Positions 9,881 to 59,547 of a DNA stretch of 64,000 bases are shown here, in pieces. The position numbers were made by a program, and so were the translations under genes. The stretch's first letter is position 1, and each line of letters begins with the position of its first letter. The notes below the pieces were generated by a model. The model searched no databases and was not told the DNA's origin. It was given only the letters and a program-made list of their open reading frames with translations. The stretch comes from Candidatus Omnitrophota bacterium. GTDB lineage: Bacteria; Omnitrophota; Gorgyraeia; Gygaellales; Profunditerraquicolaceae. The DNA lies in the NCBI GenBank assembly GCA_041651035.1, contig JBAZKC010000003.1, positions 5,153 through 69,152 of the forward strand, in the 5' to 3' direction.

Positions 9881-9937
9881 TAATTTTAGTTAGATTTTGC
9901 CACTTCCTACGTCTATTATAATAGGAGATGGAGAGAT

Positions 9938-10237: not shown

Positions 10238-10263
10238 CCATTTTTGCTAAGGGGAGGTAAGAA

Positions 10264-11016
10264 ATGGACGGGGTAAAGGTTTTACGCAGCACCCAGATAA
10301 TCATTCTGGGAATATGTTTTGTGGTGGCAACAATTACTTCAACGGTTATTCTTTCTAAGGGGCTTTTGCAGATGAAGAAGTATTCAGAGCAGGTAGTTAA
10401 GGTTACTGGTTCAGCCGAGAAGAACATCACTTCTGACGCCATGGTTTGGAAGCTGAGTTTCTCGCGTCGGGACGTTAAGATGGTGGGTGCTTTTGATCTG
10501 CTTAAGGAAGACCTTAAGATGGTAAAAGGATATTTACTTAGCAAGAGTGTTAAGGAGAGCGAAATTATCATTGCCCCGGTTACAACTACTGTCTTGTATA
10601 AGAAGAATGAGAAAGGAAATAATACTAACGAAATAGAGGGTTATATCTTGGATCAAGAGATTGAAGTTCGCTCAAACGATGTCATTAAGGTCACCGAAGT
10701 TTCCCGGCAAGCTACTGAGCTTATCGAAAAAGGTCTTGAGGTTATTTCTCAGGCTCCCGAATACTTTTATACCAAGCTTCCTGAGCTTAAGTTGTCCATG
10801 TTATCTGAGGCAACTGAGAATGCCAAAAAGCGCGCAGAATCAATGGCTAAGGCTTCAGGAAACAAAATTGGCAGCATCCGCTCTGCACGTATGGGGGTGT
10901 TTCAGATCACGCCGGTTAATTCTTATGATGTTTCTGACTGGGGTATGAATGATACTAGCTCCTTAGAAAAGAAGGTTAATGCCGTGGTCAATGTGGAGTT
11001 TGCTATTTCAGAATAG
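10264..11016 (+). CDS. TM-anchored SIMPL/DUF541-like domain protein
   Basis: N-terminal TM (IIILGICFVVATITSTVIL), VKVTGSAEK… start and …VNVEFAISE end typical of SIMPL domains; different frame from the preceding zf-HC2 ORF. Confidence 0.45.
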   Translation: MDGVKVLRSTQIIILGICFVVATITSTVILSKGLLQMKKYSEQVVKVTGSAEKNITSDAMVWKLSFSRRDVKMVGAFDLLKEDLKMVKGYLLSKSVKESEIIIAPVTTTVLYKKNEKGNNTNEIEGYILDQEIEVRSNDVIKVTEVSRQATELIEKGLEVISQAPEYFYTKLPELKLSMLSEATENAKKRAESMAKASGNKIGSIRSARMGVFQITPVNSYDVSDWGMNDTSSLEKKVNAVVNVEFAISE

Positions 11017-11027: not shown

Positions 11028-12722
11028 TTGCACTCTCCGTGGTTTTACGGTAGAATGGTATCAATCATTAGAAGTATAAATTGTATGAATATCAATTGGT
11101 TAAAATATCGCAAGAACCTTCGCGGCCGAGACCCATTAGGTGTCCAGGCTATTAACATTCATTTATATAGTCTTCTTGTCCCTGGAATAACCAACGTTAC
11201 CGATCGCCTGCGCTACTATTCTTTTTTCCCATGGGTTCTCAAACTCTATAAAGACGAGAATATTAAATTAGATTTTGTACCATTTTTGAGACGCGCTGAA
11301 TTTTTATTTAGCGTTATCACAACTTATCACCATATTAATGAACCATCATGGTCTGGTCATATGGTTGGAACAATGGTAATGGGGCAGGCGACTAGTGAGC
11401 TAACCGTCAATAAAAAGATCGTTCTTTCGAAATATACAAGCCTAGAGGAAAGCAATCAGAGATATTTCAAAAATAGACTAGGTGGATTTGGGCAGTATTA
11501 TTTGGGTGTTTTAATTGCTAATGGGATACTAGATAGAAAAGGAAATCTTGAATTTGCGCTTTATCCTAGAGGCCTTGAGCTGGCAAATGCATTTGTTTCA
11601 GGAAATTCTAAAGATACTTTCATTACATGTGTTTTAAATGATAAAGTTACAGCGAAAGAGTTAGATATTATGAAAGACGATCTTTGCGCCTGCAATCTAA
11701 AGCGAAATAGTTCTGAGTATAAACTTTTATCAGAATTCCTCAAAGGACAAGATGACCCCTATGTACGTGAATCGACATATAAAAGACGCGATTCGCTTGC
11801 TCTCATGTTTTTACTTCTGGAGCAAACAGAAAAGACAACCGATTATTGGGAATTATTAAACGCTTTATACTATGGAGTAAGCGATAATAATAAGAAGATT
11901 AAAATCCCAGCCGGTCTAACCGAAACAGCCACTCTTTGGAAATACTACGTACAGCATGAATTTTTCTCTATGGCACTCTTATCATTATTTGTAAGCGCGC
12001 AACATCTTCTTGATGATAATGGCCTAGTAAATTCTGAAATTGGAGCAAGGTTATGGGAACGCTATTTATTAAACTGTAACCCGGATGAATTACAGGCAAG
12101 CCTTAAGCCATGTCTAATAAAACTAAAAAAGAATCCTACTTTATCAGAATTCATAGGATATTTAGATTCAGTATATGCCATTGATAAGGCCTGGGATAAG
12201 GATGCGCTTTCAGAAATTAGTATTAGTAAATTCTTGGATAACAAACAGTTTCCCCCAGATTCACTTTTAGTTGGAGGGCTGGTGTTATTATCTTTAGTAA
12301 TTCGTGCTATTAAGGATGAGCAAGGTGAACCTCAGGGTATAAATTTTAAAGGAATTTTTAGCCAATACCCTATAAATCTTAGTAAATTAAGAAAAGACTA
12401 TAATGATCGATGGCACAAAATGAAAATTTTCGAAGTAGTTCATGAATTAGTCATGGAGTATATATTAAATAGACATATAGAGGTAGCTGTTCGAAAGCTC
12501 TATACAGAGGGACTTGCGACCTTCCGCTTCTTAAGAGAAGACAATATATATAGACATAGTGAGATTGAATATGATTATGTTGGGAATACCAGCCCGCGTT
12601 TAAGGGAAAGCCTTCAGATGATGGCAGACCTTAAAATTGTGAATGAAGCAAAAGAGGGGTTTTCTATTATTGATAAAGATATTGGTACAAAGTATTTTCA
12701 CGAGGTAATTAGTGGAGCTTGA
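11028..12722 (+). CDS. Hypothetical protein (564 aa), first gene of the candidate defence cluster
   Basis: Long ORF with no recognisable motif; alternative start at 11085 downstream of a TTGCAC-17-TAGAAT promoter-like element (11038-11066); 3' end overlaps the next gene by 11 bp. Confidence 0.5.
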   Translation: MHSPWFYGRMVSIIRSINCMNINWLKYRKNLRGRDPLGVQAINIHLYSLLVPGITNVTDRLRYYSFFPWVLKLYKDENIKLDFVPFLRRAEFLFSVITTYHHINEPSWSGHMVGTMVMGQATSELTVNKKIVLSKYTSLEESNQRYFKNRLGGFGQYYLGVLIANGILDRKGNLEFALYPRGLELANAFVSGNSKDTFITCVLNDKVTAKELDIMKDDLCACNLKRNSSEYKLLSEFLKGQDDPYVRESTYKRRDSLALMFLLLEQTEKTTDYWELLNALYYGVSDNNKKIKIPAGLTETATLWKYYVQHEFFSMALLSLFVSAQHLLDDNGLVNSEIGARLWERYLLNCNPDELQASLKPCLIKLKKNPTLSEFIGYLDSVYAIDKAWDKDALSEISISKFLDNKQFPPDSLLVGGLVLLSLVIRAIKDEQGEPQGINFKGIFSQYPINLSKLRKDYNDRWHKMKIFEVVHELVMEYILNRHIEVAVRKLYTEGLATFRFLREDNIYRHSEIEYDYVGNTSPRLRESLQMMADLKIVNEAKEGFSIIDKDIGTKYFHEVISGA

Positions 12723-15156
12723 TCTAATACAGCGAATTAAGGACTTTAAACCAACAGAAGCATATGTTTTAACCTTCTCTATTGACCTTCATTATTATGA
12801 AGGATTTTTTCTACCTCTGATTCAACAGCTTGGATGTACAAAGAATATAGTTATTGCAGATAGTAACAAAATCAGCGAAAATTTAGAAACCAATTCCTCA
12901 TACATTAACAAACTTGGCAGAGAGTATCTATTAATACCAATTCATTCCGACTTTGCTTTCCATCCCAAAATCTATTTGTTTAAAAAAGTGCTTAAGGATA
13001 CTACTTCTTTGCTATGTTTTGTAGGAAGTGGCAATCTCACGTATCCTGGCTTAAATACCAATCAAGAAATATTCGTTGAAGAGATATGGGAAAAGACTGG
13101 GCGTCCACCTCAGTTTTGGAACGAAGTATCAGAATATTTCAATGTAATTCTAGGATCATGCCGCGGAGAAGCGGCAAAACTGGTAAAGAAATGGTTATCG
13201 TACAGTTATCCTCAGCAATTTGAGAAAGAAAATGAGAATCTATCGATTCTTATAAGATATCCTGCTGAAACTAATATCTTTGAGCAGTTTAAGGCAAGAC
13301 TTAAGGGAAAACCTGTAAAAAATATATTTTTAACTGCTCCATTTTATGATGAAGATTTAAGCGCAATAAAAAAAGTTGTTTCGGAATGTAAGCCCAAGAA
13401 GATAGAGCTTCTTATTCAGCCTGGTAAGACAAGCGTAACTACTAAGAAATTCATCTCATTTGTTAAGGCAAATCCAAACATTACTTTAAAAGCATTTGAG
13501 CCAAAGAATTATCTAGGAAGATACTTACACGCAAAAATGATTGTAGCCACTACCGGTGCAGAAGAGCATGTTTTATCCGGAAGCGCGAACTTGTCTGATG
13601 TGGCGCTTCTTGGAAGGCCAAAAGCGTTTAATTATGAAGCTTGTGTATATACGCGTGTAGATTTGAAAAACAGTGTACTTGAACGACTTGGTATAGAAAA
13701 AATGTCAAAGCCCATATCTTTAGATAAGATGCCTGAAACGGTTGTCGAAATAGCATTTAAAGAATCGGAAGGCCCTAAATTTAAGTTAATTTCTTCCGAG
13801 TGCTATGGCGGCAAATGCTATTTCACGGTTATTGGTGCCGAGAAACATTCAACGTTGGATGCAGAACTGCGCTATAGCGATAACAAAAGAGGAACGATCG
13901 TATTAACACAGAAAAAAGATTCAAAAGATACTTTTATTTGTGAAGGAAGAGCGCTGTTCTCTGCTATCGCAGCCAGAATATTGGCAGAGAAAGATCTGTA
14001 TACCAAATGGACGCCAATATTATTTGTAGCCGAAATTGAGAGGAGATCAAGAAGGTACTTTGAAAAAGCTGAAAAACTAAAGGATAGTTTCCTGCGTGCT
14101 GCAAATGAGTTAAACAGGGATAATTATCTTGATCTAATCTTTGATAGCTTAATAGAAGATTCTTTAAAAGCGCTTGAAGCAAAGGTTAGTTCTTCCAGGG
14201 TATCACTTAAGGAAGATGATGCAATGAAGGGCGTAGCAACGATAAATATTGAAACTGAAACGCCAATCATAGAGAAGACTGGTGAGTCAACCGCTGGGCT
14301 GGGGTTTAATGAAGGCTTAGACTATGTAATTTCAGTATTGCGTGAAAGACGGCAAGCCGGCTCTATGGAAGAAGACGTAACTAATACCGAACAGGACAAG
14401 GAGTTTGAAGAATACGATCAAAAGCTTCAAGAGTCAACAGAGGCTCAATTGCAGGAAGTAGATATTCTTTATGCAATATCGAGGCGTTTGAAATCAAGGA
14501 GAAGGGTTTTTATCAAGAATGAATCAATTAAAGATCCTGTCGTAAGAAGCTCTTATTTTTCACTGATAGCATTGCCGCACATGCCAAAGTTACACCGGTA
14601 TTATATTGGGGATGACAAGGAAAGGCATTCTTGCGTTAGCGATGATGATTGGAATGAATTTGTTATTGAATCATGCAATTCATTGGGTTTGCTTACGTTT
14701 AAAACACCTTCTAAAGATATTTGGCCTGATTTAGGAGTAGATATATTAAAAAAAGATATTTTTGAAGTTTGCATTGTTTCAATTTTGTATTCTTTTGTTA
14801 CAGTTTATCCAATATTAAAATACAGAAGCAATGCGTTAGGAGATGAAGGGTTTAATAGTTGTTTGCAGCTCAACCGCTTTACCAATCTTTTGGCAGCAAT
14901 GCTACAAAATTATCTTAAAATTGAAGGATCAAGCCCAGATATTCTTAAAGACAAGTTGAATGAAATTCGCGAACATTTCCCATGCGGTTGGTTATTTGTG
15001 GAAAAAAGCCTAGTAGAAGTTTTTGATAATGTATTAGATGTTATTAATCATAATTTTAAGAACCCAAAAGTATGGGAATTCGGAGACCTAAGTTATATTG
15101 CTGGTAAAGGGTTTCTATTACGGGCTAAAGGAAAAAGCATCTTACTCTGGGAATAA
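12712..15156 (+). CDS. PLD-family (HKD-like) nuclease-domain protein with a large unknown C-terminal region (814 aa)
   Basis: Two HxK…GSxN motifs: FHPKIYLFKK…VGSGNLT (aa 84-108) and LHAKMIVAT…SGSANLS (aa 273-293); the Asp of the canonical HxKx4D is replaced. Confidence 0.6.
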   Translation: MELDLIQRIKDFKPTEAYVLTFSIDLHYYEGFFLPLIQQLGCTKNIVIADSNKISENLETNSSYINKLGREYLLIPIHSDFAFHPKIYLFKKVLKDTTSLLCFVGSGNLTYPGLNTNQEIFVEEIWEKTGRPPQFWNEVSEYFNVILGSCRGEAAKLVKKWLSYSYPQQFEKENENLSILIRYPAETNIFEQFKARLKGKPVKNIFLTAPFYDEDLSAIKKVVSECKPKKIELLIQPGKTSVTTKKFISFVKANPNITLKAFEPKNYLGRYLHAKMIVATTGAEEHVLSGSANLSDVALLGRPKAFNYEACVYTRVDLKNSVLERLGIEKMSKPISLDKMPETVVEIAFKESEGPKFKLISSECYGGKCYFTVIGAEKHSTLDAELRYSDNKRGTIVLTQKKDSKDTFICEGRALFSAIAARILAEKDLYTKWTPILFVAEIERRSRRYFEKAEKLKDSFLRAANELNRDNYLDLIFDSLIEDSLKALEAKVSSSRVSLKEDDAMKGVATINIETETPIIEKTGESTAGLGFNEGLDYVISVLRERRQAGSMEEDVTNTEQDKEFEEYDQKLQESTEAQLQEVDILYAISRRLKSRRRVFIKNESIKDPVVRSSYFSLIALPHMPKLHRYYIGDDKERHSCVSDDDWNEFVIESCNSLGLLTFKTPSKDIWPDLGVDILKKDIFEVCIVSILYSFVTVYPILKYRSNALGDEGFNSCLQLNRFTNLLAAMLQNYLKIEGSSPDILKDKLNEIREHFPCGWLFVEKSLVEVFDNVLDVINHNFKNPKVWEFGDLSYIAGKGFLLRAKGKSILLWE

Positions 15157-15273
15157 GAGAAACGTTTTACGGTTTAGCATATACTTTGATAAAAAGAAGA
15201 AGACCGTTAAGTGTCCAAAGCGTGGTGAAGAGGTAAAGATTAGTTGGTATACAAAGATAGGAGGGGTCTTGTT

Positions 15274-16497
15274 ATGGAGTTTAATTGTCCTTTATGCAAA
15301 CAGCCAGTTACTGAAGAGCTATATGGTAAGATCACAGGTATTTGGAAAGAACAAAAAGTAGCCGAAAAGAAATTTAAGCAAAAAGAAAAAGAGCTTATTA
15401 AGCAACAAAAAGCGGATAAAAAACAATTATTAGATGAACGCAGAAAATTAAAAGCTGAGCAAAAAGTAGTAATTGAACAGAAGATCGCTGAAAAAACAAA
15501 GAAACATTCTTTAGAATTAGAGAAGATTCGGTCAGAAAAAGATAAAATTAAAGAGCAGGCAGATAAAAAGATATTGGCTGCTGTCAGGGCTGCCGAAATG
15601 AAAACTAGGAAAGAAATCAATAAGGATCTTAAGAGCAAAATAGATGAATCGGTTACGAAGCAAGTTGCAAAATCAACAGCCAAGGTTCAAAAAGATTTGC
15701 TACGGAAAGATCGAACAATTGATGCAACAAGAAAACAAATGTCGACCCTGCAAGAACAAAATTCAAAACAGCAGCAGCGCATAACTAATTTGGAAACCCA
15801 GCTTAAGAAAGAGACGACTCCGCAAATAGAGGGGTTGCTGTATGAGGATAATTTACTTGAAGCCTTGAAAAAAGAATTCCCGGAAGATAAATTTGAACAT
15901 CCCGGTAAGGGTGGCGATATTATTCAATTTACAATCCATAATCAAAAACAATGCGGAATAATTGTTTATGAGTGCAAAAAAGTTGGCCAATGGCAAATAG
16001 CTCACGCTGAACAGGCAGCTCAAGCTAAATTACAAAGAAAAGCCGATTTTGCTATTTTAGTTACAAATGCGTCAAAGAAAGGCGGAGGAGGATTCTTTTT
16101 AGAAAAAGGAGTTGTTGTGGTTCATCCTGGAGGAGCTTTAGCAATCGCAAGTATCCTTAGAGAGCAAATCGTAAAGATTGCCCAGATGAAGTTAACTCAG
16201 GCTCAGAGAGAAGAAGCTATTGAAAAAACTTTTGAATATTTGCGCGGCCCTGAATTCAAAAACTCATTAGATATTGTTATAAGAAAAACAATAGAAATGT
16301 ACGAGGAGTTAAAAAAGGAATGCCAGGATCATGTTAAGCTATGGAAGAAAAGGTACGATACATTAAAGATTGTCCATTCTAATTCGGTTCAGGTACAGAC
16401 AAAAACGGTAGCTTTAATTTCTGGTAAATCTGAGACAATCCAGCAGGAAGTAGAATCGCATCAATTTCCTGCTTTGCCCGATTTGACTACTCTTTAA
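15274..16497 (+). CDS. Zn-ribbon plus long coiled-coil protein with a C-terminal PD-(D/E)xK-like segment (DUF2130-like)
   Basis: CPLCKQPV at the N-terminus, ~180 aa K/E/Q-rich heptad region, C-terminal GDIIQF…IVYECKKV (D…ExK); RBS AGGAGGGG 7 nt before the ATG at 15274 (the ORF track begins at 15244). Confidence 0.5.
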   Translation: MEFNCPLCKQPVTEELYGKITGIWKEQKVAEKKFKQKEKELIKQQKADKKQLLDERRKLKAEQKVVIEQKIAEKTKKHSLELEKIRSEKDKIKEQADKKILAAVRAAEMKTRKEINKDLKSKIDESVTKQVAKSTAKVQKDLLRKDRTIDATRKQMSTLQEQNSKQQQRITNLETQLKKETTPQIEGLLYEDNLLEALKKEFPEDKFEHPGKGGDIIQFTIHNQKQCGIIVYECKKVGQWQIAHAEQAAQAKLQRKADFAILVTNASKKGGGGFFLEKGVVVVHPGGALAIASILREQIVKIAQMKLTQAQREEAIEKTFEYLRGPEFKNSLDIVIRKTIEMYEELKKECQDHVKLWKKRYDTLKIVHSNSVQVQTKTVALISGKSETIQQEVESHQFPALPDLTTL

Positions 16498-16504
16498 GGA
16501 TTAA

Positions 16505-17428
16505 ATGAAAGCAAACATAACAAACCAAACTCACGACAGACCTTCATTTTACAAGTACGTCTCAAGTGAAGTAGCAAAGAGTGTTCTTACAAATAAAACT
16601 TTGAAATGGAGTTCCCCTTTGCTGTTTGATGATCCATTTGACGTGACTCGCGTATTAGCCGCGGATATTAAAGCTTCTGAAATACAAGAATGTCTCATTG
16701 ATAGTATAATAGACTTAATTAAGAATAATACAGAGGTGCGCTCGGAGTTTAATCCTAAAGTATGTCTTATGATAGAGACCTTAAGGAAATCCGGAAGAAA
16801 TGATGTAAAAGAAGAAATTATTCGTTCGCTTTATGATTTGAAGAATGAGCCAATTATGGAGTCTTCTGCCTTAGGCGAATTAAGAAAAATGTGGGAAGAT
16901 ATGGTTTTAATTTCTCGTATTCTATGTCTCAGCGCTAGAAATAACATTGAACTGATGTGGGATCGTTATGCGGATAAATATAGGGGTGTTGTTCTTGAGT
17001 TTTCTTGTTTGAAGGAGCTTGATAGCCCGTGGCTTATATTTGAACCAGTTCAGTACAGGCCTTCTTTTTTGGATAAGGTTGGTTGGGGAAGAGTGCTAAC
17101 TTTGAATCAAGATGCGGCTACAAAATACATTTTTCATGAAAGCTGTTATACTAAAACATCGGATTGGTCATATCAGGAGGAATGGAGGATAGTAAGTTTC
17201 AAGAGAACAGGAGAAAATGGAGAATATTCGTACTATAAGTTTAATCCAAAAGAATTATCCGCCATTTATCTCGGCCCAGAGATTGTTGCAGAAGACAGGG
17301 AATGTATACTGTCATTACTAAATAATGAGCTATCGCATGTGAAGGTGTACTCCGGGAGTATAACGGTCGGATGCCGTATTGAATTTAGAGAATTACCAAG
17401 TGTTCGCGTAGAGAGATCAGTTGGTTAA
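16505..17428 (+). CDS. DUF2971-like protein
   Basis: N-terminal FYKY…LKWSSPLLFDDPFDV pattern characteristic of DUF2971; starts 8 bp after the preceding gene. Confidence 0.45.
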   Translation: MKANITNQTHDRPSFYKYVSSEVAKSVLTNKTLKWSSPLLFDDPFDVTRVLAADIKASEIQECLIDSIIDLIKNNTEVRSEFNPKVCLMIETLRKSGRNDVKEEIIRSLYDLKNEPIMESSALGELRKMWEDMVLISRILCLSARNNIELMWDRYADKYRGVVLEFSCLKELDSPWLIFEPVQYRPSFLDKVGWGRVLTLNQDAATKYIFHESCYTKTSDWSYQEEWRIVSFKRTGENGEYSYYKFNPKELSAIYLGPEIVAEDRECILSLLNNELSHVKVYSGSITVGCRIEFRELPSVRVERSVG

Positions 17429-17453
17429 TCTTACCCCTTAAAACTGTGCCACT

Positions 17454-17537
17454 TCCAATTGCGTGTACAGAGAGTTTTTCTGACATACCATATTTCTACG
17501 CCGCCTCTTAGGGATTACCTCTTATGATATACGATAA
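17454..17537 (+). repeat. R1 repeat copy 1 (TTCCAA…TACAGAGAGTnTTTCTG…TATTTCT…TAGGG.TACCTC…GATAA)
   Basis: ~80% identical to 21017-21110; located after the DUF2971 gene. Confidence 0.6.
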
Positions 17538-17766
17538 GAAAATTTAAAAAAGGATTTACAATGGGGAAGATGAGGTATAGAATAAATCCATCATTAAGAG
17601 GTGGTAAATGAGGTTTGAATAGCAAAATTTGAAGGCAATTCCTAAAAATAGGGGGGTTGTCTTTTTTAATTGACAGTTCTAATTTTTGAAATATAGAAAC
17701 ATTGCTAATTTATAATCATTTGATTTTTTTAAATCACCCTGAATTTAACGTGGGAGAGGCAATAAT

Positions 17767-20700
17767 ATGTTAAAGATTGATATGAAATTAATGAAAGATA
17801 TATTGCAATCCAAGCCCCTTGTTGTTATTGATCGAGTAATTGAATTTTCTCTTGTGGTCCCAGAAGAGGAAATTAATCCAGTGTTAGAGTTATTTTGCGA
17901 TGCGATTTCAAAGAAGCTTAATTTAAGTAGTGAAAGTGAATTTATTACAAAATCTAGTGAAACAATTTTTGAACAGAATTTAAGTCAAGAGAATAAACAA
18001 TTTGTTGCTATATGTCTACTTAGGATGCTTTCGGCAAATGATAAGTTTTTGCAAAAAGACGTTAATTTTAGGGCGAATGTTTTTAAGCTTTTTGATAATG
18101 TTTTTTTAAATGAAGTCTACATAAAACTTGGTATTTTACCCTCAAGCCAAACTTACGAGAAGGAAAATAGGTTGAAAGACTTGGTCCCGGTTATTGAAAG
18201 CGAGCTGGATGCCTTATTGTCCTCTTTTAATAATATGGAGTCGTTACCAAATTTTAGTCAAAGGTTTATTTCTATAATTCGTTCTAAAAGAGCGAAAAGA
18301 ATTATATGGCCATTTTGCCCAAAGGAATTATTAGATGTTAGATTGATTGGACTTTTCCGTCTTGCTAAAGAATACTTTGAGGCTAAAGGTGATAAGGCTG
18401 TTCAGGTTTTCGAGAAAGTTAAATCAAGTTTTACATCATTTATAAATATTGCTGATGAATTCGGAACTAAGTATAGCAAAAATTACCTTGGAGAATTGGC
18501 TAAGAAATTAAGATTATTAATTGTAGAGAGTTTTAACGAAAGCCCTTTAACGAAATCAACCAATGTCGTAATAAGACCCTCCATAAAGAAATATCCTTTT
18601 TGGGCTGTGGGCAAAATTATAAAGTTAAGTTTTATTGTAGAAAATTTGGGACCGGGTTATGCTTTTAATGTTAATTTAGGGACTAATTCAGAGATTCAGA
18701 TAGATAAAGAAAAGATATATTTAGGGAATCTTGAACCTGGTTTAATGACTATTGAAATTCCAGCAACTATTAATCAAGTTTCGGATTCTGTTAATATTAA
18801 GATTAGGCTAAGTTGGAACAATTTCGATAAGACTGAACAAATCCAGGAGTTTGATTTTAAGTTAGATGGGCAACGGTCAAATATTAAATGGGATGAAATT
18901 GCAAAAGAAGATCCTTATAGTCTTGAACCAATAAGCACAGAGGGTGAGCTTGTTGGTAGAGATGAAATTATTCGTCAATTGAAGGCGCAAGCTCAAGCAG
19001 ATAGCATTGGTTCATCATATGTTTATGGCCAAAAACGCGTTGGTAAAACTTCAATAGTGAAGACATTAAAGATGCAACTTAATAAGTTGCATTCTCAGGA
19101 TTATATGGCCATTTATCTAGAAGCCGGTGATTATATCGATCCAGACTCTAGGAATACCATAAAAAATTTAGGGAGAAAAATATGCAAAGAAATAAAGGAA
19201 TCAGATTTACGTTTTAAGAGTTTGGAAATTCCTTTTTTTGAAAGTGCGCTTTCTCCACTATCTGATTTTTTACAAGAGACATTGAGAATAGTCTCAAATT
19301 TAAGAATATTATTTATTCTAGATGAATTCGATGAGCTCCCAATCGAACTTTACAAACGAGGTTCTATTGGAGATGCATTTTTCCAAACAATTAGGGGTAT
19401 AAGTAATAAGAAATCTTTTGGATTTGTCCTAGTTGGTGGAGAGAAAATGGAACATATTTTAAGTTGCCAAGGTGACGTTTTGAACAAATTTCAACCAATT
19501 AGAGTTGATTATTTTGACAGAGAGCAGCATTGGCATGACTTTGAAGAGCTTGTTAGAAGACCAGTTGCCGATTGGTTTGAAATTCCAGATAATGCCTTAT
19601 TCGCTTTGTATGATCAAACCGCAGGGAATCCGTATTTCACTAAGTTAATATGCCGCTCTATTTTTAAAATCATGTTAGAAAGAAAGGATAGCTTTATAGC
19701 TGAATTAGAAGTAAAAGAAGCCATGGTTCAAGCTTTGCATGTTACTGGTAGTAATAGTTTTCAGCATTTTTGGGAGGATGATATTTTTGAAGTAGGGGAT
19801 AAAGCAGAAGTAATTTCCATGAACAGAAGAAAAGTTTTGCTTGCGTTGACAGAAGTATTTAGGCAGCACCCAGTTGCGAAAAGAGAACAAGTTTTAGCAC
19901 AAGCAAAGAACTATGGAGTTGAGTTAATTATTGAATCCGAGCTTAGAGAGCTTGAGCGTAGAAAAGTGCTTATTTCTGGAGCAGCAGGGTATAAATGTAA
20001 AGTGCATTTTTTTGAGGAATGGCTAAAAGAAAAAGGGGTCAATGAAATCATAACTACATTTACTGATTTAGACAGTATCTTGCTAAGAAAAAAACAAGAA
20101 GAGGAAGCATATGTTCGTTCAGATGAAGTTGTAAGATTGGTAAATAATTGGGGTACATATAAAGGAAGATTAATTACTGAAGATCGGGTGAGAGCATGGC
20201 TTGGTCAATTTGGAGATAATTCTAGTCAAAGACTAGCGTTTTGTATTTTACAAAATATTCGATTTTATAGTAATGATAAAATAAGGGCTAAATTGAAAGA
20301 AGCTCATGGAATCGTGGTTAGAGGACTAGTTCAGAAATACGAAGAAAAGCAGCGTAAGGTATCAAATATCGCAGTAAGCTATTTGGATGGCGTAGGAAAA
20401 AGTGGTGCTGAATTTGCACGACTTTATGCTGATGAGAACAGTATTTATTATAAGAACATAATTGAGCCTAATGAATTTGAACGTCTGGTAAAAAATAACA
20501 ATGGGATTCAGGTTTTGGTTTTTGTCGATGATTTTATGGGTACAGGAAACTCTGCAAAAGAAAATTTTAATAAATTATTTGATAAATATAGTGTATTTTT
20601 AAAAAGTATTGAATTACAAATGTTCTATGTTGCCATTGCTGGTTTTCAAGTAGCAAAAGTTAATCTCGAAAATGAACTTAGTAAATTAAATTTTTCTGTG

Positions 20701-20958
20701 AAAGTACATGTGTGCGATCCATTAGATGATTCTGCGAAGTGTTTTATTGATAAATCACAGATTTTCCCGAATCAGTTAGAGAGGGAAAAGGCGAAGGAGC
20801 TTTGCTCCCGGCTAGGAACGAAATTGCTAAAAGAAGCCCCATTAGGTTATGGAGATTGTCAAGCTACCGTAGTGTTTGAGGAATCGTGTCCGAACAATTG
20901 CCTTCCAATTTTATGGGAAGAGGGTAGTGACTGGGATCCTCTTTTTAAGCGCCTATAA
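17767..20958 (+). CDS. Large P-loop NTPase (STAND/AAA_16-like) with a C-terminal PRTase-like PRPP-loop motif (1063 aa)
   Basis: ELVGRDEII…GQKRVGKTS Walker A; ILFILDEFDE Walker B; near the C-terminus VLVFVDDFMGTGNS resembles the type I phosphoribosyltransferase hhhhDDhh-TG loop; RBS GGGAGAGG; candidate promoter TTGACA…TATAGA at ~17681-17710. Confidence 0.55.
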   Translation: MLKIDMKLMKDILQSKPLVVIDRVIEFSLVVPEEEINPVLELFCDAISKKLNLSSESEFITKSSETIFEQNLSQENKQFVAICLLRMLSANDKFLQKDVNFRANVFKLFDNVFLNEVYIKLGILPSSQTYEKENRLKDLVPVIESELDALLSSFNNMESLPNFSQRFISIIRSKRAKRIIWPFCPKELLDVRLIGLFRLAKEYFEAKGDKAVQVFEKVKSSFTSFINIADEFGTKYSKNYLGELAKKLRLLIVESFNESPLTKSTNVVIRPSIKKYPFWAVGKIIKLSFIVENLGPGYAFNVNLGTNSEIQIDKEKIYLGNLEPGLMTIEIPATINQVSDSVNIKIRLSWNNFDKTEQIQEFDFKLDGQRSNIKWDEIAKEDPYSLEPISTEGELVGRDEIIRQLKAQAQADSIGSSYVYGQKRVGKTSIVKTLKMQLNKLHSQDYMAIYLEAGDYIDPDSRNTIKNLGRKICKEIKESDLRFKSLEIPFFESALSPLSDFLQETLRIVSNLRILFILDEFDELPIELYKRGSIGDAFFQTIRGISNKKSFGFVLVGGEKMEHILSCQGDVLNKFQPIRVDYFDREQHWHDFEELVRRPVADWFEIPDNALFALYDQTAGNPYFTKLICRSIFKIMLERKDSFIAELEVKEAMVQALHVTGSNSFQHFWEDDIFEVGDKAEVISMNRRKVLLALTEVFRQHPVAKREQVLAQAKNYGVELIIESELRELERRKVLISGAAGYKCKVHFFEEWLKEKGVNEIITTFTDLDSILLRKKQEEEAYVRSDEVVRLVNNWGTYKGRLITEDRVRAWLGQFGDNSSQRLAFCILQNIRFYSNDKIRAKLKEAHGIVVRGLVQKYEEKQRKVSNIAVSYLDGVGKSGAEFARLYADENSIYYKNIIEPNEFERLVKNNNGIQVLVFVDDFMGTGNSAKENFNKLFDKYSVFLKSIELQMFYVAIAGFQVAKVNLENELSKLNFSVKVHVCDPLDDSAKCFIDKSQIFPNQLEREKAKELCSRLGTKLLKEAPLGYGDCQATVVFEESCPNNCLPILWEEGSDWDPLFKRL

Positions 20959-21016
20959 AATCTGTATAAAATATTCTCCAGTAGACTTTAACATCTAATC
21001 GTAGCCTTTTCTATAT

Positions 21017-21110
21017 TTCCAAGCTCTATACAGAGAGTCTTTCTGCCGCGCCGTATTTCTGGGCGTCTTTAGCGGGGTACCTCGTTTTAATTAAGATCTG
21101 ATATGATAAA
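21017..21110 (+). repeat. R1 repeat copy 2
   Basis: Matches 17454-17537 with one ~15-bp insertion; abuts the 21116 start codon. Confidence 0.6.
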
Positions 21111-21115
21111 TTATC

Positions 21116-21904
21116 ATGAAAACTAATCCAAATTTTCATCCCCTAGTAGAAAGAACAAGAAAGAGCATTAGTAAATATCCTTTAGACAAAGGTTGTCTTA
21201 TTGGTAGGCGCGAAGGACTTGATATCCGCGTAGGTCCCGATAGTGTAGATAGAGCATTAAAGATTATGGATACCTTGATTCAAGCCTTAGAAGCAAAAGG
21301 AGGACAGGTTTCTATAATTAAGAAAGACTATTATAAGAATCCCACTTGTGTTAATCTTTCTGGCGTAACCCTTGAATTCGACATTTATGAGAAAATAAAT
21401 ATTCTAAAGAATGGGCAGGATAAATTTGGTTATAACCAATTAGATTATATCCCTAACGGTAAGCTGGTTTTAAGGATTAAAAATACCTATGCTAATCGCA
21501 GCGAATGGAAAGACGGTGACCGTAAGAAGCTAGAAGATCAAATAGATAGTTTTATCGAAGGTTTGTATGCAGCAGTAGCGAAAGAGAAAGAGCTACAGAA
21601 GGAACGCGATAAATGGAAAGAAGAACAGAAGAAGAGAGATGAATTAGAAAGATTAAAAGAGTTGGAGCAGGAGCGCGTTGCTTACCTTGAAAAAGAAGCT
21701 ATGCGCTGGCAGAATAGCCAGATAATCCGCTCCTATGTGGAAGCCGCTACAAAGGCATATACTCAAAAGAACGGCAAGATCGAACCCGGTAGTGCATTTG
21801 ATAAGTGGAAAGATTGGGCCAAACAGCAGGCTGATCGTTTAGACCCCTTGCTAAATAGGCCGTTATTAGCCAAGAATGAAACAGTAATAAGCGAGAATAA
21901 GTGA
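21116..21904 (+). CDS. Hypothetical protein with a C-terminal coiled-coil (262 aa)
   Basis: ORF; K/E-rich heptad region KEKELQKERDKWKEEQKKRDELERLKELEQ. Confidence 0.4.
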   Translation: MKTNPNFHPLVERTRKSISKYPLDKGCLIGRREGLDIRVGPDSVDRALKIMDTLIQALEAKGGQVSIIKKDYYKNPTCVNLSGVTLEFDIYEKINILKNGQDKFGYNQLDYIPNGKLVLRIKNTYANRSEWKDGDRKKLEDQIDSFIEGLYAAVAKEKELQKERDKWKEEQKKRDELERLKELEQERVAYLEKEAMRWQNSQIIRSYVEAATKAYTQKNGKIEPGSAFDKWKDWAKQQADRLDPLLNRPLLAKNETVISENK

Positions 21905-21963
21905 ATGTCCGCCCATATACGGGTGGACAGGCCTTATCTATCTCTAGTATAACGAATTACGCC

Positions 21964-22118
21964 AATTTATCTCTGATAAAAGCGGACAAAACGGACAAAT
22001 TATCGTATTAACCATTATCTCTGAAGCCCGTAATTTCCTTGCAATTGGCAAAAATCATACCTATAATAAGGACTGCATGGTAAGAGATACTGTTATTAGT
22101 AACACCCATGCGGGGAGC
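21964..22118 (+). repeat. R2 repeat copy 1 (AATTTATCTCTGATAAAAGCGGAC … AATCATACCTATAATAAGGA…GTTATTAGTAACACC…CGGGGAG)
   Basis: Core 22053-22118 aligns with 22973-23037; the upstream TTATCTCT block is also shared. Confidence 0.6.
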
Positions 22119-22201
22119 CAAATATAACTCGAACTTTGCGATTTTCGCAAGGTTCGAAAAGGCCTTCTATAAGACTGCCTGCCGGTAAGCAGGCAAATGA
22201 C

Positions 22202-22230
22202 TTGCAGAGGGTTTTTTGTTGAGGTATAAT
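22202..22230 (+). promoter_or_regulatory. Sigma70-like promoter TTGCAG-17-TATAAT ending 6 nt before the ATG (leaderless-type arrangement)
   Basis: TTGCAG at 22202-22207, TATAAT at 22225-22230, ATG at 22237; no SD sequence. Confidence 0.45.
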
Positions 22231-22236
22231 TAGTTT

Positions 22237-22578
22237 ATGAAAATAATAACAGAAACATTATTATCAGATGAACTTAAGCAGATGGCTGAGGCTACCTTTG
22301 GTAATTTGGTAAAGGCTGTAGTTGATATCGATAGAGAAATTATTGCAGTTGATGCGGAGCTTCACTCTGATTTAGAAGCGTTGCTTTTAAAAGACGGCTC
22401 AAAACAAAAGAATCTCTGGGGTATTAATTTCTATCCAGAAATTAAGGGGGATGATTTTGTTGAATTTGACTCCATGATTAATATGCGCCCGTCTCAAGGG
22501 AATAGAAGCCGCGGTGTTGAGAATGAAGATATGCGCAAGAAGATTATTGCAATAGCTACAAAAAGGATTAAGCGATGA
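22237..22578 (+). CDS. Hypothetical small protein (113 aa), first gene of a translationally coupled pair
   Basis: ORF; stop overlaps the next start (ATGA). Confidence 0.45.
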   Translation: MKIITETLLSDELKQMAEATFGNLVKAVVDIDREIIAVDAELHSDLEALLLKDGSKQKNLWGINFYPEIKGDDFVEFDSMINMRPSQGNRSRGVENEDMRKKIIAIATKRIKR

Positions 22579-22907
22579 ACTATCAACATAAAGATTTAGC
22601 TGCTGGCCGTTGGAGTCAGCTATCCTTGATAGAGCAAATGGCAAATATTGGTAGCGAGGTTGAGCGAGCGCTTAACTGGCGAATAAAGAATAATGTTGAT
22701 TATACTCAAAAGGCATTTGAACGAGCCCTTGAGTTAATCGATTTAACATTAGAAAATGAAAAAAATTATGCACATCTGCAGGAAATTACCCGATTGAGAG
22801 AAGCAATTGTTGATTATTTCTTTGGGGTAAACCAGTTTATTTCTTCAGAAGGCTCTTGGCGGAGTTACTTCTTGCCATTTACCTACGCGTCTCGCAGAAA
22901 TCATTAA
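22575..22907 (+). CDS. Hypothetical small protein (110 aa), second gene of the pair (possible all-alpha MazG/HEPN-like fold, very uncertain)
   Basis: ORF overlapping the previous by 4 bp; WSQLSLIEQMANIGSEVERALNW helix-rich. Confidence 0.4.
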   Translation: MNYQHKDLAAGRWSQLSLIEQMANIGSEVERALNWRIKNNVDYTQKAFERALELIDLTLENEKNYAHLQEITRLREAIVDYFFGVNQFISSEGSWRSYFLPFTYASRRNH

Positions 22908-22930
22908 TTTTTAAGATTAATCTCACCTAT

Positions 22931-23037
22931 AAATTTATCTCTAAAGCTCGGAGTTTTCGTGTATTTGGTCATTAATCATACCTATAGTAAGGAAGTTATA
23001 TAAGAGATATAGTTATTACTTACACCAACACGGGGAG
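22931..23037 (+). repeat. R2 repeat copy 2
   Basis: AATTTATCTCTAAAGCTCGGAG … AATCATACCTATAGTAAGGA…AGTTATTACTTACACC…CGGGGAG. Confidence 0.6.
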
Positions 23038-23069
23038 TAAAAATAAAAAGGTATTTATAAATTATTTTC

Positions 23070-23097
23070 TTGAAAATCTTGCTATTTATGCTATAAA
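23070..23097 (+). promoter_or_regulatory. Sigma70-like promoter TTGAAA-16-TATAAA ending 7 nt before the ATG (leaderless-type)
   Basis: TTGAAA at 23070-23075, TATAAA at 23092-23097, ATG at 23105; no SD sequence. Confidence 0.4.
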
Positions 23098-23104
23098 ATA
23101 ATTT

Positions 23105-25435
23105 ATGTTTAAGTATAAATTTGTTGCTTTTGTCGCTTTAGTTTGTTTGGTATTATCTTTTACCACCACCCTTGCCTTTGCCGATAGCCCCAACAGCTCT
23201 CCCGTAAAAGTACAAATCTCAGCCTACGGCTCCAACGAAAGGAGCCAAAGAGGGCTTTTTACCACAGACTTTATCGTTCCTCTATATTATCCTGAAAACA
23301 AAAACACACTCTTTTTCTTTAACCCTAAATATACCTACACGACCCCGGATGCCGATGAGATCAACCAAGGCATAGGCCTGCGCCACATCTTCGATGATTC
23401 GTTTATCTTAGGGATAAACATCTTCTTCGACCGCCGCCTCGCTCATTCAGGCAAGTGGTATTCCCAGGCAGGCCTAGGTTTAGAATACCTCTCGCACCCC
23501 CTGGATGTACGCCTGAACTGGTACAAGCCTTTAACCAGGCCTAAAGTAGTAGATACAACCTACGGCTTCGGTTCCACAAGTTTAATCCAGTATGACAGTA
23601 AAGAAGAACCTCTCCAGGGCCTTGATTTTGAAGTTGGTGTCCCTGTCTTTGACCAATACACTAAGACACGCCTTTATCTCGGCGGCTTTTTTTACCAGTC
23701 CCGCTTGAGCAAAGACGTAAACGGATTCCGCACCAGGACCGAGACCAGCCTTGCTAAATGGCTTAGCCTGGACGCAACTTTTGAGTCTAAGTCTGACGGC
23801 CAGACTAAACTCTACGGCGGGGCGAGGGTCATTCTTCCCTTTGAATGGACCAAGCTCTTTAGAAAGAAGAGTAAGCAGGAATCTTCATCCCCGGCAGTTC
23901 CCAATACCTATATTGAAGACCGTATTTTTGACAGGGTAGTACGGGATATTGATATCCAGAGTAAGAGCTCTACTGCAGAGTCAAAAGAGAATGACTTAGT
24001 CTACGTGGATAACTCCAATACCTCAGGCACTGAAGACGGCTCCCTCCAGCACCCGTATAACACAATACAGGAGGGCGTTAACAATGCCTTTGGCGACAAG
24101 TGGGTCTATGTTAAAGAAGGCTTAAGCCAAGAGTCTACCCCTACATATTATGCCGCGGTTGACCTTACGAGCCATGATGATGTTGTATTATGGGGCAGCG
24201 GCTACGATGGGGGTTTTAAGGGTATAACTGCTCCGGGATATCCGGTTATTGATGGAGGGGGCTCGGATGATGATATCATTACCCTCGGGGATAAGAACAC
24301 CATCATGGGGCTACAGATCCAGAATACCGGAGGAAGTTGCATTATCGCAACAGACAGGACCCAGGCAGATATCACAAATAACATAATTAAGAAATTCGGT
24401 TATAATGGAGTATCTCTGGCCAACAACGGTGCAGTAGCGGCTAATTATAACATTAACGACAACATTTTCACTAATGACATTGATTCATACGATGATATAT
24501 GTATAGAAAATTACGGAAGCGGTTTAACAACGGCAAATATACTCAGGAACAATTTTGAAAACAATCTTGTATACCACTTAGGTATGGAAGTTTATGCCTA
24601 CTCTACGGGCCCGGTTAACTGCGTGATCAGGGATAATTCTTTTATTTTTAGCGGGGATAATTCCATGGGGATTTACGGTTGCGCTTTTGATACCAGCCAA
24701 ATGGATTTTATAATTACCGGAAACTCTTTCATCTTTAGTGGGGATTACATGACGGGGATCTACTATGACGCTTATGAGAATAGCCAGGCAAATTATACAA
24801 TTACCGGAAACTCCTATTTGTCTACCGCCACGTATAGTCCGTTTACGTTCGGCGGTCCAAATAATGACGCTACGCTTACCGCGGTAATCAGCGGTAATTC
24901 TTTAACAAGTGATATGGGTATAGATGTAGGCAGCTGGGATAATGCCAATGCCACCTACACTATCTTCGATAATACAATAACCGGATACAACGCTGATACC
25001 AGTTGGCTGGGCATAGAAATTCAATCATATCAGACTTCCAGCCTGTCGGCAGACGTATACGGCAATACCATCACAGGATTCCTCCATCCTCATACACAGT
25101 CTGGAGATCTTGATTGCGGGGCTGTGCAGATTGTAGCAGGTGATAGCGTCTCTTCCAGCGTCAAACTTTACCAAAATACCATAAATAATAATTATTTGGG
25201 AGTGCATGTCCACAACCTCACAACATCCGGGGTATACAACGTAGACTTAGGCGGGGGCACTCTTGGTTCTATGGGTTACAATTCTATCTATGGCAATACC
25301 CTGGATGTCAATAACGAATCCTCCGGCCTGTCTGTCAGCGCCCAGCACAACTGGTGGGGACAGGCCCCGCCTGATGCTGCTAAGTTCAGCGGCACAGTTG
25401 ACTATACTAATTACCTTTATTCAAACCCTAATTAG
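23105..25435 (+). CDS. Inverse-autotransporter-like (intimin/invasin-type beta-barrel) surface protein with a parallel beta-helix repeat passenger
   Basis: Signal peptide (FVAFVALVCLVLSFTTTLAFA); GIGLRH…GINIFFDRR…GLGLEYLSHPLDVRLNWYKPL resembles the IAT beta domain; many repeats like ITGNSFIFSGD/ITGNSYLS/ISGNSLTSD typical of right-handed beta-helix. Confidence 0.5.
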   Translation: MFKYKFVAFVALVCLVLSFTTTLAFADSPNSSPVKVQISAYGSNERSQRGLFTTDFIVPLYYPENKNTLFFFNPKYTYTTPDADEINQGIGLRHIFDDSFILGINIFFDRRLAHSGKWYSQAGLGLEYLSHPLDVRLNWYKPLTRPKVVDTTYGFGSTSLIQYDSKEEPLQGLDFEVGVPVFDQYTKTRLYLGGFFYQSRLSKDVNGFRTRTETSLAKWLSLDATFESKSDGQTKLYGGARVILPFEWTKLFRKKSKQESSSPAVPNTYIEDRIFDRVVRDIDIQSKSSTAESKENDLVYVDNSNTSGTEDGSLQHPYNTIQEGVNNAFGDKWVYVKEGLSQESTPTYYAAVDLTSHDDVVLWGSGYDGGFKGITAPGYPVIDGGGSDDDIITLGDKNTIMGLQIQNTGGSCIIATDRTQADITNNIIKKFGYNGVSLANNGAVAANYNINDNIFTNDIDSYDDICIENYGSGLTTANILRNNFENNLVYHLGMEVYAYSTGPVNCVIRDNSFIFSGDNSMGIYGCAFDTSQMDFIITGNSFIFSGDYMTGIYYDAYENSQANYTITGNSYLSTATYSPFTFGGPNNDATLTAVISGNSLTSDMGIDVGSWDNANATYTIFDNTITGYNADTSWLGIEIQSYQTSSLSADVYGNTITGFLHPHTQSGDLDCGAVQIVAGDSVSSSVKLYQNTINNNYLGVHVHNLTTSGVYNVDLGGGTLGSMGYNSIYGNTLDVNNESSGLSVSAQHNWWGQAPPDAAKFSGTVDYTNYLYSNPN

Positions 25436-25493
25436 CCCTTTGAACGCCTGCCATTTTTTATCTAGCTAGTGTATAAGTGAGATTATACGTTTA

Positions 25494-25535
25494 AAAGCCC
25501 TTGCAAATAAACTACTTGTGAGGGCTTTTTGTTTG
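25494..25535 (+). terminator. Rho-independent terminator
   Basis: AAAGCCCTT…AGGGCTTTTTGTTT. Confidence 0.55.
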
Positions 25536-25564
25536 GAGTAAAATAGAAAAGATGGGAGGGCAGG

Positions 25565-25942
25565 ATGGAGAAGAAAAGGCCGGTTGGTATAATAATATTA
25601 GGTAGCTTTTGGTTACTGATAGGAGTATATTACGGGATAGTAAATATTATAGGAAAAAGATTGCATCATTTTGATTTAGTCGTTCTTCCTATTTTATATC
25701 TTGGTATTGGAGCAGGGATCCTTATGCTAAAGAAATGGGCGCGATGGATCACTCTGTTTGCTATGGTTCTGCTTATGTTGAGCGGAGTATTGCTATTTAA
25801 TAGATGGTTAGAGGTAATAAGAAGCCTGCCAAATTCAGGATATCGTATAATAGCGATCCTCCTTTTTCTAGCTCGGTTCGCTTTAGCAGGAGGAGTAATC
25901 TTTTATCTCACGCGCGTTAAAGTAAAACAGCAGTTTAAGTAA
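25565..25942 (+). CDS. Small integral membrane protein (4 predicted TM segments)
   Basis: Hydrophobic segments; RBS GGGAGGGCAGG. Confidence 0.45.
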   Translation: MEKKRPVGIIILGSFWLLIGVYYGIVNIIGKRLHHFDLVVLPILYLGIGAGILMLKKWARWITLFAMVLLMLSGVLLFNRWLEVIRSLPNSGYRIIAILLFLARFALAGGVIFYLTRVKVKQQFK

Positions 25943-26012
25943 TTATAACCGGCTCTTTATGCGGAAGAGGCTTTTAAAAAAGCCCTGTCATTGTAAACGA
26001 AAGGAGGAAGAT

Positions 26013-26402
26013 ATGTTTAAGAAAGCAGCGGTTTTCGTCTTCTCGGGATTTTTACTCTTAAATATGTATGGCTGTTTTGCTTTATTCGCGGGGGCAGCAA
26101 GCGGGGCTGGAACAGCAGTTTGGCTTTCCGGGAAATCGACGCAGCAATTCAACGCTTCTTATGAAAGGACAGTAAAAGCGACTAAATCAGCTTTAAAGTC
26201 TTTAAATTTAGAAATAGCAAAGGAAACGAAAGAGGCAGATGTCACAACGTTCAGGAGTCACTATACCGATGGTAAGGAGATTTGGATTGATGTCAGAAAA
26301 ACTACTGATACTTCTACAAAGGTAGAAGTCCGCGTAGGCGGGGTGAGCGCAGATAAAGAAGCAAGTGCTGGAATTCTAGATAGAATAAAGCGTTATTTAT
26401 AA
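26013..26402 (+). CDS. Putative lipoprotein
   Basis: RBS AAGGAGGA 4 nt before the ATG at 26013; signal with LLNMYGC lipobox-like cysteine (the ORF track starts earlier, at 25959). Confidence 0.45.
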   Translation: MFKKAAVFVFSGFLLLNMYGCFALFAGAASGAGTAVWLSGKSTQQFNASYERTVKATKSALKSLNLEIAKETKEADVTTFRSHYTDGKEIWIDVRKTTDTSTKVEVRVGGVSADKEASAGILDRIKRYL

Positions 26403-59544: not shown

Positions 59545-59547
59545 TAA

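Follow-up and report, generated by a model that had tools for sequence, protein, structure and literature searches.

A candidate one-protein anti-phage gene that joins an ORC/Cdc6-like ATPase to a retron type III-A-like phosphoribosyltransferase domain

Background

The effector of the type III-A retron Retron-Eco11 belongs to a distinct lineage of type I phosphoribosyltransferases (PRTases), with a phosphoribosyl pyrophosphate (PRPP)-binding loop, VVILTDTIGSGNQ, a family-specific G-x14-PNNxP motif and a fused RuvB-type winged helix (PMC12746101). Mutation of the PRPP motif abolishes defence, and activation of the retron by the phage helicases UvsW and D10 is followed by a fall in PRPP of about 50% (PMC12746101). 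ATPases of the ORC/Cdc6 clade (ORC, origin recognition complex) are also used in anti-phage systems, as BrxC of the bacteriophage exclusion (BREX) system shows (PMC12839542). Here, we describe a gene in a 64-kb stretch of a Candidatus Omnitrophota contig, JBAZKC010000003.1 (the whole stretch analysed is called the window), whose 1063-aa product combines domains resembling both, and which we regard with moderate confidence as a self-contained, one-protein anti-phage system of the abortive-infection type, made up of a sensor, an ATPase switch and a PRTase-CE effector.

Results

The gene is the sole long open reading frame (ORF) in its region and starts with ATG, in agreement with the original prediction of a single large ORF in A/T-rich DNA (GC 0.34). 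Its product is identical to NCBI MFA5145366.1, 'MAG: ATP-binding protein [Candidatus Omnitrophota bacterium]' (MAG, metagenome-assembled genome), encoded on a 199.7-kb contig. The protein was modelled with AlphaFold2 from an 80-sequence alignment (mean pLDDT 89.6, pTM 0.70), with a separate model of the N-terminal 395 residues (pLDDT 93.3), and its layout is as follows.

17767..20958, + strand: coding sequence, 1063 aa (ORF and protein identity to MFA5145366.1)
17767..18540, + strand: aa 1-258, all-helical N-terminal domain (predicted structure)
18550..18876, + strand: aa 262-370, seven-stranded immunoglobulin (Ig)-like beta-sandwich with KKYP and NxGPGxAF motifs (predicted structure)
18949..19581, + strand: aa 395-605, AAA+ ATPase core of ORC/Cdc6 type with N-linker ELVGR
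19582..20061, + strand: aa 606-765, helical lid, helical region and winged helix (DSSP, structural alignments, conservation)
aa 606-660: helical lid with the invariant G620-N-P622 (19624-19632)
aa 661-765: helical region with the winged helix at its end (predicted structure)
aa 766-807: linker helices (predicted structure)
20188..20955, + strand: aa 808-1063, PRTase-CE domain (Pfam, predicted structure)
20512-20553, + strand: aa 916-929, PRPP loop VLVFVDDFMGTGNS
20845-20907, + strand: retron-type motif G1027-x14-P1042-N-N-x-x-P1047

The C-terminal domain (aa 808-1062) matched the Pfam family PF24390 (PRTase-CE) across all 253 profile positions, with an E value of 1.5e-55 and a score of 189.2 bits (cut-off 27), and five PADLOC models of retron type III-A PRTase effectors (PRTase_III-A) recognised the same domain, the best at 3.1e-37. 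In structural comparisons, it scored 11.1 against uracil PRTase (1vst_A, 146 residues aligned) and 10.8 against the orotate PRTase domain of uridine monophosphate synthase (3qw4_C). At the level of the predicted model, the PRTase fold of this domain is thereby confirmed, bearing out a proposal first made from the PRPP loop, which is present as described although its true ends differ by 1 and 2 nt from the 20513-20551 first given. The loop follows the type I PRTase pattern of a hydrophobic strand, two acidic residues and x-x-G-[ST]-G, and among 80 homologues of 34-88% identity, the set used for all conservation counts here, D921 and D922 are kept in 80, G925 in 77, [TS]926 in 80 and G927 in 78, with G1027, P1042 and N1043 of the downstream motif kept in 80, 79 and 78, respectively. 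Because the G-x14-PNN motif and the invariant D921/D922 are shared with the Retron-Eco11 effector, the domain is assigned to the retron III-A type. The original prediction had named ShosT and some retron effectors as examples of PRTase-like toxin modules; for ShosT, PADLOC gave no match at E ≤ 0.01.

Despite its effector domain, the locus is not a retron, since no reverse transcriptase (RT) domain was found in the ORFs of 11028-26402 or any RT within 6 kb on either side of the gene, Rfam detected no noncoding RNA (ncRNA) family near it, and no RT was conserved beside the homologues at 80 loci. ShosTA/PsyrTA was likewise rejected, as PADLOC at E ≤ 0.01 found no ShosT, ShosA or PsyrT in the gene or its neighbours, and so was DS-32, since the NCBIfam model DS32_1 ('phosphoribosyltransferase-like anti-phage protein') matched only weakly (32.2 bits against a cut-off of 250, E 6.4e-8) and no NADAR neighbour was present.

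The ATPase module carries the sequence elements that had been read from the DNA: ELVGRDE at aa 393-399, the Walker A motif GQKRVGKTS at aa 421-429, exactly at 19027-19053, and the Walker B motif ILFILDEFDE at aa 514-523 (19306-19335). Residues G421, Q422, R424, V425, G426, K427 and S429, as well as D519, E520, F521, D522, D921 and D922, are identical in all 80 homologues, and judging by this pattern the Walker and PRPP-loop motifs are not chance occurrences. Candidates for an arginine finger are R579 (in 46 of the 80), K/R585 (in 70) and R597 (in 50), none of them invariant. Pfam placed the core in AAA_22 (aa 415-565, E 1.4e-11); a TniB match lay just over its cut-off (24.4 against 22.4 bits), was weaker than AAA_22 and covered the generic AAA+ core only. 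Models of signal transduction ATPases with numerous domains (STANDs) stayed under their cut-offs (AAA_16 24.3 against 32.6, iSTAND 14.4 against 24, nSTAND6 12.3 against 27.7), as did ATPase_2, and sequence and profile searches of the PDB matched the Walker A region only (Clp, DnaX, RFC).

Structural comparison ranked archaeal Cdc6/Orc1 highest (2qby_A and 1w5s_A, 16.2), followed by ORC4 (5uj7_C) and ORC5 (4xgc_E) at 15.9, TnsC (14.2 and 14.1), BrxC (13.9), the archaeal AAA+ protein SSO1545 (13.3) and MuB (13.1), with the STAND proteins EfAvs5 (11.8), WRR4A (11.5), MalT (11.2) and ZAR1 (10.8) below them. Foldseek gave Cdc6/Orc1 as best match (4e-9), then RuvB, ORC and RFC, with 0 STAND proteins among the top 50; the Cdc6/Orc1 and RuvB alignments cover ~370-420 columns, that is, ATPase, lid and winged helix. 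As in the ORC/Cdc6 clade, an AAA+ core, a helical lid, a C-terminal winged helix and intact Walker A and B motifs are present. DSSP and conservation define the winged helix by helices 706-716 and 722-731, a hairpin at 735-744 and the invariant R732. As modelled, the ATPase fold is closer to ORC/Cdc6 than to the solved STANDs. The earlier label 'STAND/AAA_16-style' was therefore near the mark, because the ORC/Cdc6 clade is itself close to STANDs, without being the best fit. The protein is neither a known Avs protein nor a KAP NTPase, the two families named beforehand as those that could account for it: Avs was rejected on the sub-threshold STAND models, the ORC/Cdc6-like fold and the lack of a repeat sensor, with no Avs or NACHT match in PADLOC at E ≤ 0.01, and KAP was rejected as there is no KAP_NTPase match and no hydrophobic insert in the ATPase.

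The ~400-aa N-terminal region, which had been called unknown, has no Pfam match in its 395 residues at E ≤ 10 (nor does aa 622-811), and the model now resolves it into a helical domain with a near-invariant QTYEK motif (Q128, K132) and a beta-sandwich that scored 11.1 against the macroglobulin (MG) domains of alpha-2-macroglobulin. Pfam found no repeat domains (TPR, WD40 or LRR sensor) in the protein, whose C-terminus is the PRTase domain, and PADLOC matched neither the ATPase nor the N-terminus, only the C-terminal domain. Mean pairwise identity is 25.8% in the N-terminal helical domain, 31.5% in the beta-sandwich, 50.6% in the AAA+ core, 46.5% in the lid, 40.1% in the winged-helix region and 44.8% in PRTase-CE, making the helical domain the fastest-evolving module. 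In alphaproteobacterial and Pseudomonas variants, the first ~270 residues are lost in tblastn although the ORFs are ~1,050-1,080 aa long, and their helical domain is nonetheless homologous (hhalign probability 99.2%, 14% identity). Taken together, the original interpretation of the gene is supported in part.

The protein belongs to a large family of fixed architecture. A homologue search gave 180 matches, of which those listed are ~1,050-1,090 aa long, 34-88% identical over the full length, and all with PF24390 and an AAA domain, PF24390 being present in every listed homologue that is not cut off before the C-terminal domain. Effector swaps were considered for four sequences without PF24390 (P0106, P0109, P0111, P0116) and rejected, as each of these copies is truncated or has a frameshift. 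Searching 1.84 billion cluster representatives (clusters defined at 50% identity) with a profile gave 1,109 clusters at E ≤ 1e-30; among the best 150 of these, 149 align with the profile over its full length without a break, and the usual size is 1,040-1,080 aa. In a scan of one genome per species, at least 399 genomes carried a relative, spread over about 24 bacterial and archaeal phyla (counted from record titles) and including Woesearchaeota and Thermococcaceae MAGs, Asgard and DPANN MAGs, and the cultured Pseudomonas trivialis, P. alliivorans, Chryseobacterium kwangjuense, Paludibaculum fermentans, Conexibacter and Gelidibacter algens. Besides one 88% copy, the closest relatives (51-53% identity) sit in archaeal MAGs, which suggests transfer between domains of life, subject to the accuracy of MAG binning. 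Several copies are divided among 2-3 ORFs or go out of frame where the PRTase domain begins (loci L085, L087, L036 and L056, at about 8000-10400 in each; proteins P0109 and P0111), suggesting frequent pseudogenisation, as would be expected of a costly or toxic gene. Public databases label the protein only 'ATP-binding protein', 'AAA family ATPase' or 'phosphoribosyltransferase-like protein'.

Two plasmids carry other proteins with a PRTase-CE-like domain. On Rhizobium beringeri pRlX2 (L089 3941-4897), a stand-alone gene of ~318 aa lies in a five-gene operon of hypothetical proteins, beside a SIR2-family gene and with an integrase nearby, and Bacillus mycoides p507 (L090 3887-5470) encodes a 527-aa protein with such a domain. 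These would be further, so far putative, architectures for the PRTase-CE effector.

Horizontal transfer of the gene is visible at the DNA level. Two contigs of another metagenome (L001/L002) encode the 88%-identical protein, and blastn of these against the window gave one 3301-nt high-scoring pair at 17677-20974 with 89% identity and nothing outside it, the flanks being unrelated. Since the match is restricted to this block, the transferred unit consists of the gene with 90 nt upstream and 16 nt downstream. The unit and the signals around it are listed here.

17631..17664, + strand: terminator-like hairpin and T run (sequence prediction)
17677..20974, + strand: transferred unit, promoter region and gene (blastn against L001/L002)
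17686..17716, + strand: promoter-like TTGAAA (17686-17691), N19, TATAAT (17711-17716), read from the sequence
17752..17759, + strand: ribosome-binding site GGGAGAGG, 7 nt 5' of the ATG (sequence)
17464-17535, + strand: left copy of a ~72-nt direct repeat, starting 36 nt past the stop of the upstream DUF2971/PDC-S31 gene
21027-21098, + strand: right copy of the ~72-nt direct repeat, starting 69 nt past the stop of the studied gene

The hairpin ends the upstream unit 13 nt 5' of the transferred block. TTGAAA-N19-TATAAT is a putative promoter, whose 19-nt spacer exceeds the optimal length and for that reason escaped a consensus promoter scan; in L001 the element is kept as TTGAAA-N19-TAGAAT.

The ~72-nt repeats had been taken as brackets of a mobile cassette. 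Two copies do flank the gene (nhmmer E about 1e-18 per copy, 0 of 100 shuffles matching; 32-nt core 81% identical, identity lower over the full length), and nhmmer and low-stringency blastn found no further copy in the window. The repeats lie outside the shared block 17677-20974 and are absent from the other cassette locus, and they therefore say nothing on how the gene moves. Readings as a tRNA attachment site, an attC-like element or a riboswitch were rejected, since folding of both strands gave no structure beyond shuffled controls and the tRNA and Rfam searches returned neither a tRNA nor an Rfam family. Read on the minus strand, each copy would encode KYG-x-x-E-[KR]-LSV, a segment that we take to resemble a helix-turn-helix fragment; speculatively, the repeats may be relics of coding sequence.

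Across the 80 loci, no neighbour is conserved, the largest neighbour cluster occurring in 6 loci. Among 136 adjacent ORFs, the commonest PADLOC or Pfam families are mad2, GajB/UvrD, the RT-helicase of defence-associated reverse transcriptase (DRT) systems, type I/IV restriction, PbeA, ResIII and Mrr, and one locus (L006), where WYL, ARPP-1, RadC, MAD7, type I restriction-modification and HerA genes occur together, is clearly a defence island. In the window, the immediate neighbours are a DUF2971 gene and an uncharacterised 262-aa ORF, with no transposase, TniQ or integrase adjacent to the gene. GC is 0.34-0.37 over 12-22 kb and 0.44-0.47 in most of the window beyond 26 kb, and the first ~22 kb form a low-GC defence island that includes the studied gene.

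Several other genes of this island were noted. The upstream DUF2971 gene (16505-17428, +; PADLOC PDC-S31 2.9e-31, phrog_1762 1.6e-42) may be another single-gene defence candidate. Tightly packed at 11028-16497 (+) are genes for a 564-aa protein (weakly DUF6361/ZacA-like), an 814-aa protein with an N-terminal phospholipase D (PLD) domain (ZacB 3e-12, DrmC-like) and a 417-aa DUF2130 protein (weakly LmuB-like), and these three may make up a single defence operon. At 289-4778 (+) lies a type III restriction-modification pair of N6_N4 methylase and ResIII helicase-nuclease, and a separate ParB_N-fused DNA methylase gene lies at 5555-6823 (+).

Other features of the window are repeats and RNA elements. 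Just 3' of the res gene, two 98-nt direct repeats (4898-4995 and 5034-5131; 94% identical, 136 nt apart) each hold a terminator-like AACGGTTG...CAACCGTTTTTT hairpin. A ~70-90-nt repeat (22053-22122 and 22974-23042; 79-95% identical in two segments) precedes both a DUF5674 gene (22237) and an inverse-autotransporter-like gene (23105) and may be a shared regulatory element. The latter gene, encoding a 776-aa inverse-autotransporter/beta-helix protein (23105-25435), contains a tandem 87-nt (29-codon) repeat that is 70% identical (24635-24808). A ZMP/ZTP riboswitch (30756-30843, +; Rfam RF01750, 41.4 bits with the gathering score at 39) lies directly 5' of a 760-aa ORF (30849-33131), and a GC-rich palindrome, GGGGACGGTTCTC...GAGAACCGTCCCC, which occurs twice at gene ends (30646-30685 and 33855-33894), looks like a repeated terminator or a repetitive extragenic palindromic (REP)-like element. 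At 54541-61597, several conserved segments of 30-47 nt, assigned to repeat families D2, D4 and D5, recur at intervals of about 2.0 and 2.9 kb in three paralogous genes or a multi-domain set.

Discussion

We observed which domains make up the protein, that their architecture is fixed and their catalytic residues invariant, that the gene has no partner, that it has been transferred horizontally, and that it lies in a restriction/defence neighbourhood; from all this we infer a role in defence. We propose that the fast-evolving N-terminal helical and Ig-like modules would recognise an infection cue and that the ORC/Cdc6-like AAA+ module, lid and winged helix included, would act as an ATP-dependent switch. 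By analogy with ORC/Cdc6, TnsC, MuB and BrxC, this switch probably alters the oligomeric state, possibly on DNA, and the change would activate the C-terminal PRTase-CE domain. The active domain might then attack PRPP or the nucleotide pool, as in Retron-Eco11, so that phage replication is starved and the cell arrested. The defence role, the choice of sensing module, activation by oligomerisation and the chemistry are thus proposals of this model.

A number of points weigh against this proposal. Canonical Pribosyltran (PF00156) does not match the isolated domain even at E ≤ 10, and a profile search of the PDB found no solved relative of PRTase-CE, a domain that is far from canonical PRTases by sequence; hhalign against E. 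coli Apt, Hpt, PyrE and Upp also found no similarity, although this was a weak test, with single sequences as templates and an option possibly mis-set. The fall in PRPP reported for Retron-Eco11 is modest (~50%, P = 0.04; PMC12746101), and for ShosT, another PRTase toxin, PRPP was bound and no acceptor for it found. Many neighbours of the family are housekeeping genes, such as enolase and ferrochelatase, and the defence neighbours are given as plain counts. By tblastn, phage genomes gave no match and plasmids no full-length copy, only distant proteins with the PRTase-CE domain alone. The open-access literature yielded no description of the fusion or of 'PRTase-CE' and no tested family member. 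Lastly, the assignment of sensor and effector roles is read solely from conservation patterns.

The alternative that survives best keeps the defence role and changes the chemistry. Here, the ORC/Cdc6-like and winged-helix module would polymerise on foreign DNA (cf. TnsC, MuB, ORC), and PRTase-CE would do more than drain PRPP: it would either phosphoribosylate a target (base, nucleotide, nucleic acid or protein) or produce a nucleotide that is toxic or acts as a signal. We consider this unlikely, if well worth keeping in view, since both DNA binding and the product are putative, the fast-evolving N-terminal domains suit protein recognition at least equally, and the sole measured consequence for this effector type is PRPP depletion. 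A related and rather more doubtful idea is that the family is a new class of immune sensor. In that case, the ORC/Cdc6-like and winged-helix module would assemble either on DNA of the invader or on an intermediate of phage replication or recombination, with specificity given by the hypervariable N-terminal modules. PRTase-CE would catalyse something other than plain PRPP depletion, namely the phosphoribosylation of a nucleobase, nucleic acid or protein or the synthesis of a novel nucleotide, and the family would also be a free-standing, ATP-controlled ancestor or sibling of the retron III-A effector.

A function outside immunity seems improbable to us. Some PRTase-fold proteins are regulators, and the gene could encode a regulatory or metabolic ATPase whose PRTase-like domain senses PRPP or nucleotides (cf. 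PurR, PyrR) while the rest acts on DNA or another target; the predicted winged helix could bind DNA, and ordinary metabolic genes are among many neighbours. Such a role fits poorly with a patchy spread over about 24 phyla with closest relatives in archaeal MAGs, a near-identical cassette in unrelated flanks, a low-GC island with restriction/defence neighbours and frequent pseudogenised copies. It would also leave unexplained why the domain groups with retron effectors rather than housekeeping PRTases and why no operon partner or target gene is conserved.

It is very improbable that the protein serves a mobile element, whether by selecting targets, as a TniB/TnsC/MuB-like ATPase of Tn7/Mu type, or by initiating the replication of an integrated element in the manner of ORC/Cdc6. 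A Tn7-like TnsC was rejected as there is no transposase or TniQ operon and the neighbours are not conserved; in the window no integrase is adjacent either, the unit in common with the 89% copy is the gene and its promoter only, phages gave no match and plasmids no full-length one, and the TniB hit is to the generic AAA+ core and scores below AAA_22. An orphan effector served by an RT and multicopy single-stranded DNA (msDNA) encoded elsewhere is scarcely credible, for although the effector domain is of retron III-A type and DRT-type RT genes occupy 3 of the 136 neighbour positions, no RT lies within 6 kb or is conserved beside the homologues, and, unlike retron effectors, the protein brings along a sensor and ATPase apparatus in its N-terminal 800 aa.

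If the proposed one-protein defence role is correct, the defence-system models searched here lack an immune gene of very wide distribution, PADLOC seeing only the effector domain of the family, as a part of retrons. It would mean that an ATPase switch can take the place of msDNA in controlling a PRTase effector of retron III-A type, that an ORC/Cdc6-type AAA+ module, not a STAND, joins the sensor-switch-effector immune proteins, and that the chemistry of PRTase-like defence toxins can be approached more simply, through a single protein. For annotation, retron-effector matches on proteins of ~1,060 aa should not be taken as retrons.

Comparison with known systems

The closest described relatives of the effector are those of type III-A retrons (e.g., Retron-Eco11; clusters 67 and 113 of Mestre et al. 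2020), which fall in the same PRTase-like family (PADLOC PRTase_III-A, Pfam PRTase-CE) and share the hydrophobic-DD-x-x-G-[ST]-G PRPP loop, the G-x14-PNN motif and the association with a winged helix. Unlike them, the gene described here comes without an RT or ncRNA, its winged helix is N-terminal to the PRTase within an ORC/Cdc6-like AAA+ module, it has an extra 390-aa N-terminus, its motif reads PNNxxP rather than PNNxP, and its control is presumably by ATP and not msDNA. ShosT/PsyrT and the DS-32 PRTase of DefensePredictor likewise use a PRTase-fold domain as the toxic arm of phage defence, whereas those are two-gene systems with DprA-like or NADAR antitoxins, and ShosT adds a pyrophosphatase domain.

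In its logic, the protein resembles Avs/AVAST, bNACHT and other STANDs, in which sensor, P-loop NTPase switch and effector are likewise united in a single large polypeptide, and the likeness extends to the lack of a partner gene, the occurrence in defence islands and a horizontal spread that is patchy. The NTPase is, moreover, followed by a GxP-like motif (G620-N-P622) and by a winged helix. It differs from them in a fold nearer to ORC/Cdc6, STAND models below threshold and no C-terminal repeat sensor. The best structural matches are BrxC/BrxD of BREX, TnsC, MuB and archaeal Orc1/Cdc6, which share the AAA+ core, lid and winged helix, as well as the insertion of two helices between strands 2 and 3; they act in multi-gene machines without such an enzyme effector, whereas here the module stands alone in fusion with a PRTase. 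The parts and the logic are thus familiar, and what appears to be new is a very large and phylogenetically broad family in which an ORC-like ATPase is fused to a PRTase effector.

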